DNA from: a plasmid
Direction: 5' to 3' (one strand)
DNA: 33,568 nt
NCBI RefSeq assembly: GCF_988242995.1
Contig: NZ_OZ547045.1
Below, in pieces: positions 7,288 to 21,851 of the stretch. Position 1 is the stretch's first letter, and each line of letters starts with the position of its first letter. The position numbers were made by a program, and so were the translations under genes. The notes under the pieces were generated by a model, which ran no database searches, was not told the origin of the DNA, and worked only from the letters and a program-made list of their open reading frames with translations.

Positions 7288-7578
7288 TTAACTCAGCCCA
7301 AACAGGCCAACCAGGTAGGACGCGGAACCGACGACAATCAGACCGACAACAATACGAACCGCCCAGCTAGCAGGGAGCATATGAGCGATCCACGCGATAG
7401 CACTGACGATAATCAGAACGGTGGCCGCAACCGGAATCCACGTCATTAACCAGGAGTTAACCGAACTCATGGAGGATTCACCGGTATCTGCACCGGCGGC
7501 AAGCGCCAGCTCAGGAGCACACAAAGCAACCATCATGAACATTGCCACCGGGAAATAACGTTTAATCGCTGTATTCAT
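7288..7578 (-). CDS. virB2: VirB2/TrbC-family pilin precursor
   Basis: 96 aa, long signal sequence then two hydrophobic helices typical of T-pilin. Confidence 0.85.
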   Translation of the reverse strand: MNTAIKRYFPVAMFMMVALCAPELALAAGADTGESSMSSVNSWLMTWIPVAATVLIIVSAIAWIAHMLPASWAVRIVVGLIVVGSASYLVGLFGLS

Positions 7579-7879
7579 CTTTGTCTAACACTCCATCATC
7601 AGGAAAAATAAAATCAGGCTCATCCAGGAAAAGCCCCACTTCTTTTGCATCAAAATCGTCTCTCAGCATTTCGGCCAGTATCCTCAGATCGGCCCACGTT
7701 CTAACCCCCTCTCCAGACTGGACTCGCAGGGAGCACGTAATTACTCCCCCCTCGCTATTTCTCACATCAAAAAGCGGTATCCATTTCTTTTTATCCATCC
7801 GTTGAATAGCGATACGAATTACTTTTTTTTGATTAAAAACTTCCTCTAACTGCTTCAACAAGATGAGATAAACGCGCAT
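7562..7879 (-). CDS. Hypothetical 105-aa protein between virB1 and virB2 (the position occupied by korA in pKM101/R388-type loci)
   Basis: Intact ORF overlapping virB2 start; no motif recognised; function assigned by position only. Confidence 0.5.
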   Translation of the reverse strand: MRVYLILLKQLEEVFNQKKVIRIAIQRMDKKKWIPLFDVRNSEGGVITCSLRVQSGEGVRTWADLRILAEMLRDDFDAKEVGLFLDEPDFIFPDDGVLDKDEYSD

Positions 7880-7906: not shown

Positions 7907-8640
7907 CTACCGAAAAGCGTCACCATCAGATGCACCAAAAGCGTCTTTATCCGAGCCACCAAAGGCATCAGTCATACCGGCATCTTTTGGTTTTTCTTCA
8001 CCAACAGCAGCATCTACCGGCACAGCATCAATAGCAGCATCAACACTTTCTATATCAGTGGAACCATCATCGGCTTTCAGAGCAGGGATTACGGGTTTTG
8101 ATTGCCCTATTTGAGCAACCACCTTCGAAACATAACCGTTTGTAAATCCGGCGGTTAATGAACCCGTATTATAGCAAGACAATGCGTGTCTCAAAGCTGA
8201 CTGCCCCGGCGCATATTCCTTTGTTGCGAGCTGGTAGCAGTAGTTAAGTACCGTTTGTGCAGCTTCAAGATTTTTACAGCCATTAAACAGGTCAGCGGCT
8301 GAAACATTCAATTTTGAGAAATTCGCAGAGTTGATTTGCCCTAAACCTACGTCAAAGTTATAACCATGAGCCGTTAACCATTCGGTCGTTTTCACAGCCT
8401 CATCAAGTGATCGCGGTTGTTTAGCTAGCGGTGATTTCGTACCTTCAGGAACGTTAACGTTTATCGCGTATGGGTTGTTGCGCGATTCATGGCTAACCAA
8501 GTAACCAACAGTTAATGGGTGTACTTCTGGCGCACAACGTTTCGCCAACGCCATAACTGGCGCAGACAGCTCCGCAGTTGCGGGCGTGGCACCCATAAGA
8601 CCAGCAATTAACAGTGGGAAAAGGCTAACAACCTGCTTCA
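7907..8640 (-). CDS. virB1: VirB1-family lytic transglycosylase with C-terminal DAFG-repeat tail
   Basis: Signal peptide MKQVVSLFPLLIAGLMGATPATA, SLT-like core (ESR.NPYA...GLGQIN), start taken at ATG 8640 with AAGGA RBS; ORF track extends further upstream. Confidence 0.85.
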
Positions 8641-8649
8641 TCTCTTTTT

Positions 8650-8673
8650 TCCTTGAAATTGCAATTTCAATGA
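8650..8673. promoter_or_regulatory. Palindromic operator-like site in the divergent virB1 / hns-like promoter region
   Basis: TCCTTGAAATTGCAATTTCAATGA containing the perfect 18-bp palindrome TTGAAATTGCAATTTCAA; overlaps a plausible TTGCAA-17-TATAGT plus-strand promoter. Confidence 0.55.
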
Positions 8674-8703
8674 TTAACTGGTATAGTAAAGGTAAATTAG
8701 AAC

Positions 8704-8940
8704 ATGTCAAGACAAGATGAAAAGAAGCACAAAACAGAGCAGGAGCGCAAAACATCAGTGCCTAGACGAAAAATCATATTCGTACCCTTGCAGTCAGAAA
8801 AAAGCCCCAAAGGGGAGCCGCGCTACAGAGATCCCACCAATCCATTCAACACATGGGTTGGGAGGGGAAAGCGCCCTGACTGGCTAAAAAAGTATCTTGC
8901 TGAAGGCCGCGAGCTTTCGGAGTTTGAGATAACAGAATAA
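8704..8940 (+). CDS. Short H-NS C-terminal-domain-like DNA-binding protein (no oligomerisation domain)
   Basis: 78 aa; C-terminus ...FNTWVGRGKRPDWLKKYLAEGRELSEF matches the H-NS DNA-binding motif TW(T/S)G(R/Q)GR.P. Confidence 0.6.
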   Translation: MSRQDEKKHKTEQERKTSVPRRKIIFVPLQSEKSPKGEPRYRDPTNPFNTWVGRGKRPDWLKKYLAEGRELSEFEITE

Positions 8941-8951
8941 GGAGTTGACGG

Positions 8952-9404
8952 ATGAGTAAAGTTATTGATTTTCCTACCGGGAAAAACAGGGAGAGAAGGG
9001 CTAAGGCGATCCGGGCGCGTCGTAATAAGGCGCAGCAGCGGAGCGGAATAACCCCCTCCCAATTTTGGTGGGTAAAGAAAATAAAGTTTCTCACCGTTAT
9101 TAAAGGGTCGGCACGTTTACTTTTGATACATTCAGGGTTATTAGTTGCCGACATCCTTATCTATCTCATCTTTATTTTAGGAAAACTCCTAAAGGTATTT
9201 ACGATAATTGGCATCATCGCGGCGCTTCTGTTTCTGGTCGTGGAATATAGGAAGGATTGGCAATATACGCAATCCGCAATCCACGTCGCAGCACTATTTG
9301 TTGGCCTGGTAGTAATACGTATCGGGCATGACAAACTACTGAATGGCCTGATAAGGCTTAAATCCTACCTATCCAGAAAAGGGCAACAACAATGCGGAAG
9401 ATAA
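8952..9404 (+). CDS. Hypothetical membrane protein with basic N-terminal region
   Basis: 150 aa, AAGGAG RBS, Arg/Lys-rich N-terminus followed by hydrophobic helices. Confidence 0.6.
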   Translation: MSKVIDFPTGKNRERRAKAIRARRNKAQQRSGITPSQFWWVKKIKFLTVIKGSARLLLIHSGLLVADILIYLIFILGKLLKVFTIIGIIAALLFLVVEYRKDWQYTQSAIHVAALFVGLVVIRIGHDKLLNGLIRLKSYLSRKGQQQCGR

Positions 9405-9709
9405 TACTTGCGTCCGTGGTGATACTGGCATCGTCTTATTCGGCTGCCAGCCTTGCAAAAGATCCATGTAAGACATTAGCTTGCATGGCTGCAAAATCAG
9501 GTGGTGAGTTTGGGAGTGTTGGCGATAGTGATTGCTCTGGTGCCATAGCTGACTTCTTCAACATTGTGAAGAAAAACAAACACGGCTTCCTTCCTAACCA
9601 TACCGCCGATGCTCGCAAAGAATTTATTATGAGTTGTCCAGGAGCGGCGCAGAACACCGCCGCAGTTAACCGGGTTATTTCAATGTTTGGACGTATCAGG
9701 AAAGGTTAA
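9392..9709 (+). CDS. Hypothetical secreted Cys-containing protein
   Basis: 105 aa, signal peptide ending ASLA, several cysteines; overlaps upstream gene end. Confidence 0.5.
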   Translation: MRKIILASVVILASSYSAASLAKDPCKTLACMAAKSGGEFGSVGDSDCSGAIADFFNIVKKNKHGFLPNHTADARKEFIMSCPGAAQNTAAVNRVISMFGRIRKG

Positions 9710-9711
9710 AC

Positions 9712-10026
9712 ATGAAACTTAAAAGCATGATCTTTACCGCCGCTCTTTTACTGACAGGTTGCGCCAGTCAATCACAGGTTGAGCAGCTAACCAAGCAGGT
9801 GAACACGCTCAAAACAGATATGTATAACCTACAGATTCAACAGCGTAACGATACTAAGGCACTTCAGCGCGAGGTACAGAAATCTCGCCCAATCGGTGTT
9901 TGCTACCTTGACGGCCAGCCCTATTCACAGGGAGCGGTCATTGCTGGCCGCATTTGCGCCAGCAATGGCGTTATTGTCAACGACAGGCCCGCAGAAGTTT
10001 CATGGCAGGTTTATCACCGCCGCTAA
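9712..10026 (+). CDS. Hypothetical lipoprotein
   Basis: 104 aa, lipobox LTGC, abuts upstream gene. Confidence 0.55.
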   Translation: MKLKSMIFTAALLLTGCASQSQVEQLTKQVNTLKTDMYNLQIQQRNDTKALQREVQKSRPIGVCYLDGQPYSQGAVIAGRICASNGVIVNDRPAEVSWQVYHRR

Positions 10027-10071
10027 CAGCAAATCCGGGGCTTCGGCCCCGTTTTTTATGGTACAGGTAGC

Positions 10072-10725
10072 ATGGACATACTTTCTCTTTTCCCGTCTAA
10101 CCTCATCGCATTATGGGCCGTCTCATTCGGTTTTCTGGCCGTCCTGTATTGGTGGAAAGTCACCGGCAGAAAACGCAGACACAAGCGCAAACAGCAACAG
10201 GCCCGGCGTGTACTCGCAAAAATTCAGACTCTACCGGGGTTCGGCTACAAGATCGCGTATCTCAGAAAGATAGACCCTTTCACCTTTGAAGAATTATTAC
10301 TGGAGGGGTTTGAATCGCATGGCTTCAGAACTATCAGAAACAAGCGCTATACCGGCGATGGAGGCATTGACGGCCAGGTAATCATTGGAAAGGATCGCTA
10401 TCTCATCCAGGCCAAACGCTATGGCGGTCATATCGCTTTACAGCACGTTCAGGAGTTCGATAAGTTGCTTAAACGTCATAATTGTCGCGGTCTGTTTTGC
10501 CATACCGGAAAAACCGGCGCAGGTTCAAAATCAGTTAGCCTTGCCAGTGATCGGATGGAGATTATCAGCGGCCAGCGCCTTATTGATTTACTCACGCCCG
10601 GCAGCTCCTTCACCATCGCAACCGCACCGCAGACAATGATGAGGCGTACCGCAGCAACGCGAGGAACGAACACCATTGTCGAGGAAGCGGATAAAGAAAC
10701 AACCAACAGCATGAGAGTTAATTAA
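10072..10725 (+). CDS. Membrane-anchored Mrr-like (PD-(D/E)xK restriction-endonuclease-fold) protein
   Basis: 217 aa; N-terminal TM helix and poly-basic stretch, then GDGGIDG ... IQAKRY motifs characteristic of the Mrr catalytic domain. Confidence 0.7.
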   Translation: MDILSLFPSNLIALWAVSFGFLAVLYWWKVTGRKRRHKRKQQQARRVLAKIQTLPGFGYKIAYLRKIDPFTFEELLLEGFESHGFRTIRNKRYTGDGGIDGQVIIGKDRYLIQAKRYGGHIALQHVQEFDKLLKRHNCRGLFCHTGKTGAGSKSVSLASDRMEIISGQRLIDLLTPGSSFTIATAPQTMMRRTAATRGTNTIVEEADKETTNSMRVN

Positions 10726-11127
10726 ATGAAGTCTGTAACTATAGAAGCTAAAGCGTTTGCTGAAATGTTGGGAATAACAGAGGGTGAGTTAGTTATTGCT
10801 ATCAAGACAACTGGAAAATTTAAAAACAAGACTATTCCACAGCCTCATACTCCCCATAAATCGAAGAACAGATTTTTATATTCTGACGTGGTGAAGTTTA
10901 TGGAATCAATAAAGCAAAAAGAAAATCTACATAAAAGTTACTTGATGCGTTTTCGTCGGTGCAGGTCATTAGATACTCTTGAAAAGGTATTTGAAAGTTT
11001 GCGCGAAAAGTTAACGGGTAACGAACTGGACGCAATGATGAGCGCGTCAGACCATCGCAGAGCCGAAATTGCTCACAATACTTTATGGGATAAAGTCCCG
11101 GCATCTGCATGGAGAAATGTAAAATAA
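10726..11127 (+). CDS. Hypothetical protein with putative HTH, AT-rich, translationally coupled to the Mrr-like gene
   Basis: 133 aa; ATG overlaps the upstream stop (TAAATG); visibly lower GC than the neighbouring gene; followed by a terminator. Confidence 0.55.
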   Translation: MKSVTIEAKAFAEMLGITEGELVIAIKTTGKFKNKTIPQPHTPHKSKNRFLYSDVVKFMESIKQKENLHKSYLMRFRRCRSLDTLEKVFESLREKLTGNELDAMMSASDHRRAEIAHNTLWDKVPASAWRNVK

Positions 11128-11158: not shown

Positions 11159-11485
11159 CTATCCAATCAGCACTTTTATTTTAGCCCTAACCTCAGCTAA
11201 TACGACAGGAGGCACTTTTCCCTTTTTAACCGCGCCACGTTCCCGCCAATCAAGGCTTTTCACCTGGTCAGCCAGTACAGCGCTCCCCTCCCCGCTCATA
11301 ACCTCAAACGGATAACCTTTTATTTTTGTTGTCATAGGGCAGCACAGCAACAACCCTATTCTGCCGTTATATACCGCAGGGCTTAACACTAAGGCTGGTC
11401 TATGCCCCGCTTGTTCATGCCCTGCTTGCGGATTAAAATCCATCCATACAATATCACCGGCATCAGGAATATAGTCATTCGCCAT
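11159..11485 (-). CDS. mazF: MazF/PemK-family endoribonuclease toxin
   Basis: 108 aa; YIPDAGDIVWMDFNPQAGHEQAGHRPALVLSP ... LADQVKSLDWRERGA ... KVLIG closely resembles E. coli MazF (from memory). Confidence 0.9.
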   Translation of the reverse strand: MANDYIPDAGDIVWMDFNPQAGHEQAGHRPALVLSPAVYNGRIGLLLCCPMTTKIKGYPFEVMSGEGSAVLADQVKSLDWRERGAVKKGKVPPVVLAEVRAKIKVLIG

Positions 11486-11753
11486 TTTCTAACTTCTTCC
11501 TTCTATAGCCAACCCAGATAAACGTCAAAATGATAACGCCGCAAAGAATAAACATCAGTGCAACTGGAGTTGTATCGAGCACAGAAATAACTTGCTTACC
11601 ACCCTGATCGTCTAATGAAAAAGATTTATCATTAAACAACCTGTCTATACCCAACCATATTGAGTAAACGGCAATCCAAACCCATGCAACCTTACCGGCT
11701 ATATCCAGTAAAGCCACCACTCTTTTAAATATTTTTTTCATTGCAGGAGACAT
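11475..11753 (-). CDS. Hypothetical two-helix membrane protein inserted between mazE and mazF
   Basis: 92 aa; ATG 1 nt after mazE stop, stop overlapping mazF start by 11 nt; two hydrophobic segments. Confidence 0.5.
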   Translation of the reverse strand: MSPAMKKIFKRVVALLDIAGKVAWVWIAVYSIWLGIDRLFNDKSFSLDDQGGKQVISVLDTTPVALMFILCGVIILTFIWVGYRRKKLENGE

Positions 11754-11754
11754 A

Positions 11755-12000
11755 TTACAACACCTCTTTTCCTACTGGTGCGCCGAAAGAAATTTCCTCA
11801 TGAATATTCTCGTTAGTAACACAGGCCATCAAAGCATCCAGTGAATATTCCTTCGTTTTAACCGGCACAATAGTAATTTTCCCGTCCTCAACAGACAGCT
11901 CCACTACATCATTCACGCTTAAAGAAGCCTCCCGGATAATCGAAGAAGGGAGACGAACGGACGGGCTGTTACCCCATTTTTTAATAGTTACTTGAGTCAT
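11755..12000 (-). CDS. mazE: MazE/PemI-family antitoxin (AbrB-fold)
   Basis: 81 aa; KKWGNSPSVRLPSSI ... IHEEISFGAPVGKEVL parallels E. coli MazE (from memory). Confidence 0.9.
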   Translation of the reverse strand: MTQVTIKKWGNSPSVRLPSSIIREASLSVNDVVELSVEDGKITIVPVKTKEYSLDALMACVTNENIHEEISFGAPVGKEVL

Positions 12001-15133: not shown

Positions 15134-15245
15134 CGCCTCAGAACCCCGTAGAGCCATTCAATCAGAAAAAAGCGGCCTCATGTACAGCTCAACCAAAATA
15201 GCCGCTTACAGAGCCATACAGCGCGTATATAACCAATATCGCCCG

Positions 15246-15690
15246 GCGGCACCGGCGCTAACGTGCCTGTAGGGGCGCTGGCCGCGCTGCGGCCATCCCC
15301 CCAACACCCGGATAAATCGCGCCCGGCCCGTCGCTACGCGCCAGCCCGCCCGCTCAACCGGGCCGTTGTGACGGGCCACTGTTCCGGCAGCGGCATCGTG
15401 TGACAGCCCGCTAAAACCGGCTTTGCAGGGAGGGGGTGGGCGCGTCTCCCGGTTTGATCCCGCAAGGCCCGGCAATTTGACCACGTCGCCCAGGTTGAGA
15501 TCGGCGCAGTTGCCTTTTATTTGTCGGCATCGGCGCTAAATTTAAGTAAATTTATCGTACTATATAATGATACTTAAAGTTGACTTTTGAGGGGGAAAAG
15601 CCTATACTTTATTTACGGTTAGCAATGGTGCTGACCGACCCGGAACCAGTGGCGGCAACCGCTCCGGGGAACTTGCGAAGGGGGCAAGAA
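15246..15690. repeat. CUP-like GC-rich repeat, copy A (5'-truncated; lacks the first ~198 bp of copies B and C)
   Basis: Near-identical to 18515..18959 and 20672..21113. Confidence 0.85.
15580..15636 (+). promoter_or_regulatory. Cassette promoter P1 (TTGACT-17-TATACT) with leader hairpin GGTTAGCAATGGTGCTGACC
   Basis: -35 at 15580..15585, -10 at 15603..15608, inverted repeat at 15617..15636. Confidence 0.7.
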
Positions 15691-16264: not shown

Positions 16265-16341
16265 ACACTTTTAAAGCCCGTAAACCGGGCTTTTTTAGTC
16301 TTTAAAGTACAATTAAAAGTAAAAAATAATGATACCAATAG

Positions 16342-16399
16342 TTGACTTATGGAGGGTGAACACCTATACTTTATTCATCGGTTAGCAATAGTGCTGACC
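16342..16399 (+). promoter_or_regulatory. Cassette promoter P2 (TTGACT-17-TATACT) with leader hairpin
   Basis: -35 at 16342..16347, -10 at 16365..16370, GGTTAGCAATAGTGCTGACC at 16380..16399. Confidence 0.7.
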
Positions 16400-16453
16400 G
16401 GCCCGGAACCAGCGGCGGCAACCGCTCCGGGCAAACTGCGAAGGAGTAATATT

Positions 16454-18316: not shown

Positions 18317-18959
18317 CACTTATGGCGTTCCCTGCGGGGCGGGCTTTCGTGCTGCGCATCGAGCCAGGCAAGCTGTCTCGCCCCTTCGGGCTTCAATCCC
18401 TAACGCCTCCGGGCTGTCGCCCTCCGCGCTCCGCTTGACCCCCACGCCCTGCGCCGGACTTGCCCCGCCTACGGCGGCCCCGCCCCTCCGGGGTGGCTTC
18501 GCCATCCTCTGCCAGCGGCACCGGCGCTAACGTGCCTGTAGGGGCGCTGGCCGCGCTGCGGCCATCCCCCCAACACCCGGATAAATCGCGCCCGGCCCGT
18601 CGCTACGCGCCAGCCCGCCCGCTCAACCGGGCCGTTGTGACGGGCCACTGTTCCGGCAGCGGCATCGTGTGACAGCCCGCTAAAACCGGCTTTGCAGGGA
18701 GGGGGTGGGCGCGTCTCCCGGTTTGATCCCGCAAGGCCCGGCAATTTGACCACGTCGCCCAGGTTGAGATCGGCGCAGTTGCCTTTTATTTGTCGGCATC
18801 GGCGCTAAATTTAAGTAAATTTATCGTACTATATAATGATACTTAAAGTTGACTTTTGAGGGGGAAAAGCCTATACTTTATTTATCGGTTAGCAATGGTG
18901 CTGACCGACCCGGAACCAGCGGCGGCAACCGCTCCGGGCAATCTGCGAAGGTGGGAATT
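18317..18959. repeat. CUP-like repeat, full copy B (GC-rich body ~530 bp plus promoter/leader)
   Basis: Near-identical to 20474..21113. Confidence 0.9.
18849..18906 (+). promoter_or_regulatory. Cassette promoter P3 (TTGACT-17-TATACT) with leader hairpin
   Basis: -35 at 18849..18854, -10 at 18872..18877, inverted repeat at 18887..18906. Confidence 0.7.
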
Positions 18960-20473: not shown

Positions 20474-21113
20474 TACTTAGGGCGTTCCCTGCGGGCCGGG
20501 CTTTCGTGCTGCGCATCGAGCCAGGCAAGCTGTCTCGCCCCTTCGGGCTTCAATCCCTAACGCCTCCGGGCTTCGCCCTCCGCGCTCCGCTTGGCCCCCA
20601 CGCCCTGCGCCGGACTTGCCCCGCCTACGGCGGCCCCGCCCCTCCGGGGTGGCTTCGCCATCCTCTGCCAGCGGCACCGGCGCTAACGTGCCTGTAGGGG
20701 CGCTGGCCGCGCTGCGGCCATCCCCCCAACACCCGGATAAATCGCGCCCGGCCCGTCGCTACGCGCCAGCCCGCCCGCTCAACCGGGCCGTTGTGACGGG
20801 CCACTGTTCCGGCAGCGGCATCGTGTGACAGCCCGCTAAAACCGGCTTTGCAGGGAGGGGGGGGGCGCGTCTCCCGGTTTGATCCCGCAAGGCCCGGCAA
20901 TTTGACCACGTCGCCCAGGTTGAGATCGGCGCAATTGCCTTTTATTTGTCGGCATCGGCGCTAAATTTAAGTAAATTTACCGTACTATATAATGATACTT
21001 AAAGTTGACTTTTTAGGGGGGAAAATCTATACTTTATTTACGGTTAGCAATGGTGCTGACCGACCCGGAACCAGCGGCGGCAACCGCTCCGGGTAATCTG
21101 CGAAGGAAAATGT
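20474..21113. repeat. CUP-like repeat, full copy C
   Basis: Near-identical to copy B over about 640 bp. Confidence 0.9.
21005..21061 (+). promoter_or_regulatory. Cassette promoter P4 (TTGACT-17-TATACT) with leader hairpin
   Basis: -35 at 21005..21010, -10 at 21028..21033, inverted repeat at 21042..21061. Confidence 0.7.
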
Positions 21114-21692: not shown

Positions 21693-21773
21693 CCTTGAAC
21701 GGCGCGGCAATACCGCGCTGTTTTTTACCCTCTATTTATGTCTTATTTTAGTATCATATTATGATACTAAATA

Positions 21774-21831
21774 TTGACTTATCAGGCCGCAAAAAGTATA
21801 CTTTATTTATCGGTTAGCAATGGTGCTGACC
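21774..21831 (+). promoter_or_regulatory. Cassette promoter P5 (TTGACT-17-TATACT) with leader hairpin but no second hairpin; upstream palindrome AGTATCAtattaTGATACT
   Basis: -35 at 21774..21779, -10 at 21797..21802, inverted repeat at 21812..21831. Confidence 0.65.
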
Positions 21832-21851
21832 GTATGCGAAGGAGTAAAGTT

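Follow-up and report, generated by a model that had tools for sequence, protein, structure and literature searches.

A single-domain H-NS-like protein as the KorB of an IncN-type plasmid and a probable co-repressor with KorA

The 78-aa protein encoded divergently from virB1 on the plasmid analysed here is, judged by position and sequence, the ortholog of KorB of IncN-type conjugative plasmids. It carries one H-NS C-terminal DNA-binding domain, and the N-terminal coiled-coil domain for dimerisation and oligomerisation which is found in full-length H-NS-like silencers is absent (AlphaFold, NCBIfam, tblastn). We infer that KorB is probably an autoregulated minor-groove co-repressor acting with KorA at an AATT-rich operator, in which case it would bind DNA, contact KorA and take part in repression. 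korB itself is a known backbone gene, of which the one-domain form is uncharacterised; on present evidence a new anti-silencing mechanism is not revealed, and nothing indicates a new kind of system. All coordinates refer to the window, that is, the whole stretch of 33,568 nt that was analysed.

The 78-aa product and its DNA-binding domain

The gene and the parts of its product are as follows.

8704-8940, plus strand: korB coding sequence, single-domain H-NS C-terminal-domain protein of 78 aa (ORF; Pfam; IncN KorB ortholog)
8770-8787, plus strand: conserved N-terminal segment KIIFVP, aa 23-28, family consensus IEFVP with F26 invariant; candidate KorA docking strand
8818-8931, plus strand: H-NS C-terminal DNA-binding domain, aa 39-76 (PF00816; AlphaFold; Foldseek)
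8851-8877, plus strand: loop motif TWVGRGKRP, aa 50-58, predicted minor-groove-inserting element (family alignment; PDB alignments)

According to the ORF listing and translation of the window, korB is an ATG-started frame of 78 codons (product MSRQDEKK...SEFEITE), the counterpart of which in the 98%-identical plasmid CP074311 is annotated as 'H-NS histone family protein'. As an in-frame TAG is located at 8698-8700, two codons upstream of the start, and the frame is already maximal, no longer korB product is possible; a start further upstream that would yield a full-length H-NS, for which the preliminary description had left room, was looked for and is excluded. The residues preceding the domain (aa 1-38) are basic (11 K+R), include 7 hydrophobic residues and are predicted to be disordered and free of helix (AlphaFold; composition). 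Together with the upstream stop codon, this bears out the earlier statement that the protein has no N-terminal oligomerisation domain. The possibility that an H-NS protein is split across the plasmid, with a stretch outside korB coding for the N-terminal domain or for a second C-terminal one, is likewise excluded, as tblastn searches of the window using E. coli H-NS, R388 KorB and pKM101-type KorB as queries matched 8704-8934 only. The gene is under purifying selection: compared with its counterpart on a plasmid that is 91% identical in DNA, korB differs by 10 synonymous versus 5 non-synonymous codon changes. A terminator-like hairpin antisense to korB (8819-8803, minus strand) is formed by the codons for SEKSPKGEP; it was not found to be conserved in the IncN plasmid pKPC-1c5 and was set aside as a by-product of these codons that probably arose by chance.

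The Pfam family Histone_HNS (PF00816) covers aa 39-76 of KorB over the full length of the model (positions 1-38 of 38) at an E value of 4.6e-15, which makes the protein a member of the H-NS C-terminal domain family and rules out a chance match to the TWVGRGKRP motif. The NCBIfam models for H-NS and StpA were matched by KorB only at profile positions 97-135, i.e. at their C-terminal ends, and a sequence search against the PDB with a cut-off of E 0.1 was passed solely by the DNA-binding domains of Bv3F (2l92), StpA (2lrx), H-NS (2l93, 1hnr) and Ler (2lev). Structural modeling by AlphaFold, based on 23 homologues, yielded a beta-hairpin followed by two short helices (aa 59-67 and 71-74) with a pLDDT of about 80 for aa 39-76, thus the beta-hairpin/loop/helix arrangement with a TWxGxGRxP loop that is typical of the H-NS family. 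Foldseek returned 2l93, 1hnr, 2lev and 2l92 as best matches to this model, with probabilities of up to 0.97. The preliminary description had recognised the H-NS C-terminal signature in the 78-aa product and had proposed a formal alignment to the H-NS, StpA and Ler families; the profile, PDB and Foldseek matches agree with that recognition, and the alignment is significant, so the motif match is not spurious. Within the loop, G53, G55, K56, R57 and P58 are invariant in the family alignment, and a lysine takes the place of the canonical minor-groove arginine: K56, which we take to occupy the position of the key arginine in H-NS (R114) and Ler (R90).

The korB locus, its relatives and the remainder of the plasmid

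Over the tested segment, the window shares 98% identity with the 33.8-kb Salmonella plasmid pCFSAN004085, and its identity to some 90 further plasmids typed as IncN / MOBF / MPF_T is about 91%. On its minus strand the order is virB4-virB3-virB2-korA-virB1, while on the plus strand korB is followed by the genes of a 150-aa membrane protein, a KikA/TrbM-like protein and an Lpp-like lipoprotein and then by a terminator-like hairpin. korB is separated from the divergent virB1 (start at 8641, minus strand) by 62 bp and heads this cluster of four genes, so that its earlier placement at the head of an operon divergent from virB1 is correct.

7562-7879, minus strand: korA, 105 aa, presumed partner repressor, between virB1 and virB2 (NCBIfam NF041289 KorA, E 8.5e-23)
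7907-8641, minus strand: virB1/traL lytic transglycosylase, at the head of the divergent mating-pore operon (NCBIfam VirB1, E 6.7e-29; CP074311 annotation)
8952-9404, plus strand: korB operon, 150-aa membrane protein (ORF; order shared by related plasmids)
9392-9709, plus strand: korB operon, KikA/TrbM-like protein (ORF; order shared by related plasmids)
9712-10026, plus strand: korB operon, Lpp-like lipoprotein (ORF; order shared by related plasmids)
10036-10061, plus strand: terminator-like hairpin CGGGGCTTCGGCCCCG (10036-10051) followed by a T-run; the korB operon probably ends here

In the IncN plasmid pKPC-1c5, the gene at the equivalent position is annotated as KorB and is followed by an orf and by 'IncN plasmid KikA protein'; a comparative paper on IncN plasmids counts 'tra and kikA-korB' as the conjugal-transfer backbone. 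The pKM101-type KorB of pKPC-1c5 and KorB of the window share 50% identity over aa 1-76 (E 7e-24), and the likeness reaches the segment in front of the domain, RK(I/V)xxVPLxSEKxPKGEP, and thus extends beyond the generic H-NS domain. As position, this identity, the operator and the partner gene korA all agree, the gene at 8704-8940 is, by these positional and sequence measures, korB; what distinguishes an IncN/IncW KorB, namely its position, homology beyond the H-NS domain, a conserved palindromic operator and a partner korA, is present at this locus.

A search of 5.8 billion proteins revealed 36 close relatives of KorB, mostly of 79-84 aa, from Klebsiella, Salmonella, Xanthomonas, Pseudomonas, Burkholderia and Caballeronia, one of which is named 'probable korB protein' in UniRef. 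In the family alignment, a variable basic head is followed by a conserved (I/L)EFVP...(A/S)EKxPKGEP segment and then by the H-NS domain; the residues F26, P35, G37, Y41-R-D-P, N46-P-F-N-T-W, G53, G55-K-R-P and W60-L are invariant. We fetched the loci from Xanthomonas albilineans, X. phaseoli, Pseudomonas savastanoi, P. putida, Burkholderia stagnalis, Caballeronia and two metagenomic contigs. In every one of these korB is divergent from a virB1-like gene and a KorA-like ORF is located between virB1 and virB2, and in most of them korB is followed by genes for a membrane protein and a KikA/TrbM-like protein.

The architecture of KorB varies between plasmids. In the lineage of the window and in the environmental plasmids, KorB has no more than one H-NS domain. 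The pKM101-type protein of pKPC-1c5 (about 116 aa) has a tandem pair of H-NS domains, as does the 117-aa KorB of the 41-kb IncN plasmid pNDM1, and KorB of R388 (IncW; NC_028464; 95 aa, annotated as 'H-NS histone family protein') joins a helical N-terminal region to one domain. A profile search against 1.84 billion representative sequences demonstrated that short single-domain proteins and proteins with multiple H-NS domains (2-3, even 12 copies) are both common. One protein of 801 aa has 12 matched H-NS stretches, and some proteins combine a helical N-terminus with two domains.

Several further elements were observed on the plasmid. A 133-aa ORF at 10726-11127 (plus strand) ends in 60 aa that form an Hha/YmoA-family domain (PF05321, E 3.3e-20; NCBIfam Hha, E 8.6e-22), and its 68-aa N-terminal extension resembles, by eye, a small excisionase-type HTH; in the 98%-identical plasmid the gene called by PGAP is confined to these last 60 aa, and in CP110489 the region holds a 78-aa Hha/YmoA gene. 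The plasmid thus carries a protein consisting of only the H-NS C-terminal domain together with a partner of the H-NS N-terminal domain. Directly after the korB operon, 10072-10725 (plus strand) encodes a 'restriction endonuclease' protein of the Mrr_cat type whose N-terminal part has a hydrophobic segment, a type of protein that is found at the equivalent place in related Pseudomonas and metagenomic plasmids, and a mazEF-like toxin-antitoxin pair (11159-12000, minus strand) is located nearby. Three direct repeats of roughly 400 bp (15148-15542, 18417-18811 and 20573-20967), whose shared core of ~300 bp is 99-100% identical, and five copies of a promoter-like unit of ~99 nt (among them 16302-16400 and 21734-21832) are elements of the IncN 'conserved upstream repeat' (CUP) regulon. 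Scanning the whole window against Rfam gave no hit.

Operators and the divergent promoters

Two operator-like palindromes and two predicted promoters are central to the proposed role of KorB; the promoter assignments are predictions from consensus and conservation.

8653-8670, no strand: operator 1, perfect 18-bp palindrome TTGAAATTGCAATTTCAA with two AATT tracts (palindrome search; conservation)
2219-2236, no strand: operator 2, TCGAAATTACAATTTCAA, inside a 38-bp palindrome (two mismatches to operator 1)
8659-8687, plus strand: predicted korB promoter, -35 TTGCAA (8659-8664), 17-bp spacer, -10 TATAGT (8682-8687), upstream TG (consensus scan)
8683-8710, minus strand: predicted virB1/traL promoter, -35 TTGACA (8710-8705), 16-bp spacer, -10 TACTAT (8688-8683) (consensus scan, 10/12 matches)

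Operator 1 resides within the 62-bp gap between virB1 and korB. No other part of the intergenic region is as well conserved as its core, in which a spacing of 6 bp separates the two AATT tracts, and the conservation spans plasmids of gamma- and betaproteobacteria: the core AAATTGCAATTT is found in the lineage of the window and in the Pseudomonas, Burkholderia and R388 loci, and one or two bases are changed in the loci of Xanthomonas and of the IncN plasmid pKPC-1c5. In R388 the shared core AAATTGCAATTT is part of the perfect palindrome TCAAAATTGCAATTTTGA, and the related operator sequence of the pKM101 type (IncN) is CGTAATTGTAATTTCGA.

The predicted -35 element of korB, TTGCAA, forms the very centre of the palindrome at 8653-8670, and the earlier remark that the korB promoter overlaps a palindromic operator stands as far as this prediction goes. 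The two predicted promoters are arranged back to back and have their -10 region in common, the -35 of the virB1 promoter overlaps the ATG of korB, and operator 1 thereby coincides with the korB -35 and, on the virB1 side, with the first transcribed stretch. With about 33% GC, the promoter region is AT-rich, and the position of the -10 as well as the context of the korB start, (A/G)TGTCAAG, are largely kept in the Pseudomonas, Burkholderia, Xanthomonas and pKPC-1c5 loci. A conserved AAGG (8689-8692), which is likely the korB Shine-Dalgarno sequence, directly follows the predicted -10 and is upstream of the expected transcription start; this would mean either a korB mRNA with almost no leader or a slightly misplaced promoter. 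The predicted and conserved layout, in which operator and promoter of korB overlap each other, is that of an autoregulated repressor module.

Operator 2 differs from operator 1 by two mismatches, a match for which the chance expectation is 0.04, and overlaps the -35 (TTGAAA) of a predicted minus-strand promoter for the virB7-virB11 genes. A search of the window with a relaxed core pattern for further operator copies returned only 8653-8670 and 2219-2236. The second copy is embedded in a near-perfect 38-bp palindrome between virB6 and virB7 (2209-2246, TAATAAGTCATTGAAATTGTAATTTCGATGACTTATTA), which is followed by a T-run. As the palindrome also scored as a terminator-like hairpin on the minus strand, the element may be both an operator and an attenuator.

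KorA, the proposed mechanism and known systems

KorA of the window is 42% identical to KorA of pKPC-1c5 and 30% identical to that of R388. No match to its fold was obtained in Pfam or in a PDB sequence search, and no significant match in a Foldseek search with a model of KorA fused to KorB. For this model, KorA-(G4S)6-KorB was submitted to AlphaFold with 10 paired orthologues, which resulted in a pTM of 0.65 despite 60 disordered residues and in a confident alpha/beta fold of KorA (pLDDT above 90). In the fusion model, KorB aa 23-27 (KIIFV), which are disordered when KorB is modeled alone, adopt a beta-strand, and aa 26-35 gain in confidence, from a pLDDT of about 58 in KorB alone to one of about 81. 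We take this as a hint that the conserved N-terminal strand of KorB might dock on KorA.

By its title, the original work on pKM101 reportedly places the mating-pore and kil/kik genes under negative control of KorA and KorB. In later papers that cite More, Pohlman and Winans (1996), these pKM101 genes are likewise said to be under negative regulation by KorA and KorB. In R388, according to Fernandez-Lopez et al. (2014), KorA represses PtrwH (the virB7 promoter, about 90-fold), PkorA and PkikA, and PkorB is at background in the presence of the whole plasmid and not significantly repressed by KorA alone; of the proteins expressed singly, six repressed one promoter or more, and KorB was not one of these. 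These results fit a KorB that cannot act without KorA, at PkorB at any rate. Our literature search returned no paper that works out how KorA and KorB act and none that mentions the H-NS nature of IncN/IncW KorB.

As a probable co-repressor, KorB would act as follows. KorA, by homology with its R388 counterpart, would be the operator-specific repressor, and KorB would contribute contacts of its own, reaching with its GRGKRP loop into the minor groove of the operator's AATT tracts or of the neighbouring AT-rich -10 region that the two promoters share. Such a role of the loop would correspond to what is known of the domains of H-NS, Bv3F and Ler. When separated from the rest of H-NS, the C-terminal domain has little affinity for DNA, and dominant-negative effects come from N-terminal fragments of H-NS. 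As a lone H-NS domain binds weakly, KorB probably needs KorA to hold it in place, possibly via the conserved IEFVP strand. The outcome would be a tight shut-off of both divergent promoters and of the virB7 promoter, which would keep the toxic mating-pore and kikA genes silent until, upon entry into a new host, they are expressed in a burst. This function may not transfer from the pKM101 protein, since the KorB characterised there is of the two-domain type, and KorB may even be dispensable or do something else, since in the R388 screen KorA was sufficient at three promoters and KorB was not a repressor.

More specifically, it might be speculated, though at this level of detail we regard it as possible and rather doubtful, that KorA and KorB form a two-part repressor in which a monomeric H-NS domain that is useless alone is delivered to the AATT-rich operator by KorA via the docking strand. 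If this were true, KorA with a one-domain KorB, a tandem pair of domains, and one domain behind a coiled-coil would be alternative evolutionary routes to two AATT readers, and KorB would represent a sequence-targeted, non-filamentous use of the H-NS domain, a mode which to our knowledge has not been described for this domain.

KorB might also read the palindrome by itself, with one domain on each AATT tract, so that KorA acts elsewhere or serves only as a stabiliser. Two domains would be presented in each case, by two monomers here, by a tandem polypeptide in the other IncN plasmids examined and by a coiled-coil dimer in R388, to two tracts that are 6 bp apart in the most conserved intergenic part; the absence of a recognisable DNA-binding fold in KorA and the lack of significant repression of R388 PkorB by KorA alone point the same way. 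We nevertheless consider such autonomous binding unlikely, as R388 KorA alone represses PtrwH about 90-fold and KorB alone is not among the repressors, and as H-NS C-terminal domains are low in sequence specificity and a monomeric domain would have low affinity.

The preliminary description had offered another role, i.e. that of an anti-silencer, H-NS competitor or stealth factor, in which the lone domain sits on AT-rich plasmid or host DNA, forms no filaments and displaces or spares the H-NS of the host. KorB indeed has a true H-NS C-terminal domain without an oligomerisation domain, but this same lack should make it a poor competitor of H-NS filaments, given that isolated C-terminal domains are weak binders and not dominant negative; the proteins known for stealth functions, such as Sfh and Sfx, are full-length H-NS paralogues. 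The Hha-like gene, taken as a sign of interaction with the H-NS system of the host, and the AT-richness of the promoter region (about 33% GC) would suit such a role, yet korB is fixed with korA in the operator/promoter module across Xanthomonas and Burkholderia hosts whose H-NS-like proteins differ, and in the passages that cite the pKM101 work its ortholog appears as a negative regulator of tra/kil genes. The proposal is thus unsupported and in our view quite improbable, and korB orthology, kor genetics and the conserved operator module point to a co-repressor instead. Finally, a non-regulatory accessory role in conjugation, such as coating or compaction of plasmid DNA or a function in the recipient with an incidental position in the kikA operon, is very improbable. 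The basic disordered N-terminus, reminiscent of a general DNA binder, and the co-transcription with membrane or periplasmic mating-pair-associated genes speak for such a role; against it are the kor (kil-override) genetics cited in the literature where the pKM101 work is referred to, the absence of evidence for a secretion or transfer signal and the tight conservation of the self-overlapping operator, which argues for a role of KorB in its own control.

IncN plasmids and their MPF_T relatives rank among the major vehicles of carbapenemase and ESBL genes, and their transfer genes, which are toxic when derepressed, are controlled by KorA and KorB. KorB occurs as an H-NS module in one-domain, two-domain and coiled-coil versions, always beside the same AATT-rich operator. 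These architectures provide a concrete and testable model for how the transfer rate of these plasmids is set, and they offer a naturally occurring case in which the abilities of a lone H-NS domain can be explored.

In comparison with known systems, KorB of the window shares with KorB of the IncN plasmids pKM101/R46 the divergence from traL/virB1, the position at the head of an orf-kikA operon, a korA between virB1 and virB2, the related operator CGTAATTGTAATTTCGA and 50% identity over the N-terminal segment and the first DNA-binding domain; it differs in having one H-NS C-terminal domain, whereas the pKM101-type protein has two in tandem. KorB of R388 (IncW) similarly combines an H-NS domain, 45% identical in the C-terminal part, with a neighbouring kikA/virB1/korA module and the palindrome core AAATTGCAATTT. 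In contrast to KorB of the window, it has a helical N-terminal region like that of short H-NS proteins and no IEFVP motif, its gene order is korB <> kikA-virB1-korA, and KorA alone suffices at most R388 promoters.

With H-NS, StpA, Bv3F and Ler, KorB has the fold of the C-terminal DNA-binding domain and the TWxGxG(R/K)xP loop in common, but the key arginine of the loop is replaced by lysine followed by arginine (GKRP), and the N-terminal coiled-coil that is needed for silencing by H-NS or counter-silencing by Ler is absent. Accordingly, despite the similarity of its C-terminal domain to that of Ler (2lev), KorB lacks the coiled-coil region of a Ler-type counter-silencer. Sfh (R27), Sfx (R6K, IncX) and HppX3 (IncX3) are also plasmid-borne H-NS-type proteins that keep the type IV secretion genes of their own plasmid off, with Sfx acting on elongation together with Rho. 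These are full-length, filament-forming proteins, whereas KorB has no filament-forming domain and has a discrete operator and a partner repressor. H-NST and Hha/YmoA/Cnu are, like KorB, small proteins that are related to or act on one half of H-NS; they concern the N-terminal oligomerisation half and do not bind DNA, and KorB, which corresponds to the opposite half, is not an antagonist of the H-NST/Hha type. With the N-terminal features absent, or the opposite half of H-NS present, KorB thus stands apart from full-length silencers, Ler-type counter-silencers and H-NST/Hha-type antagonists alike.
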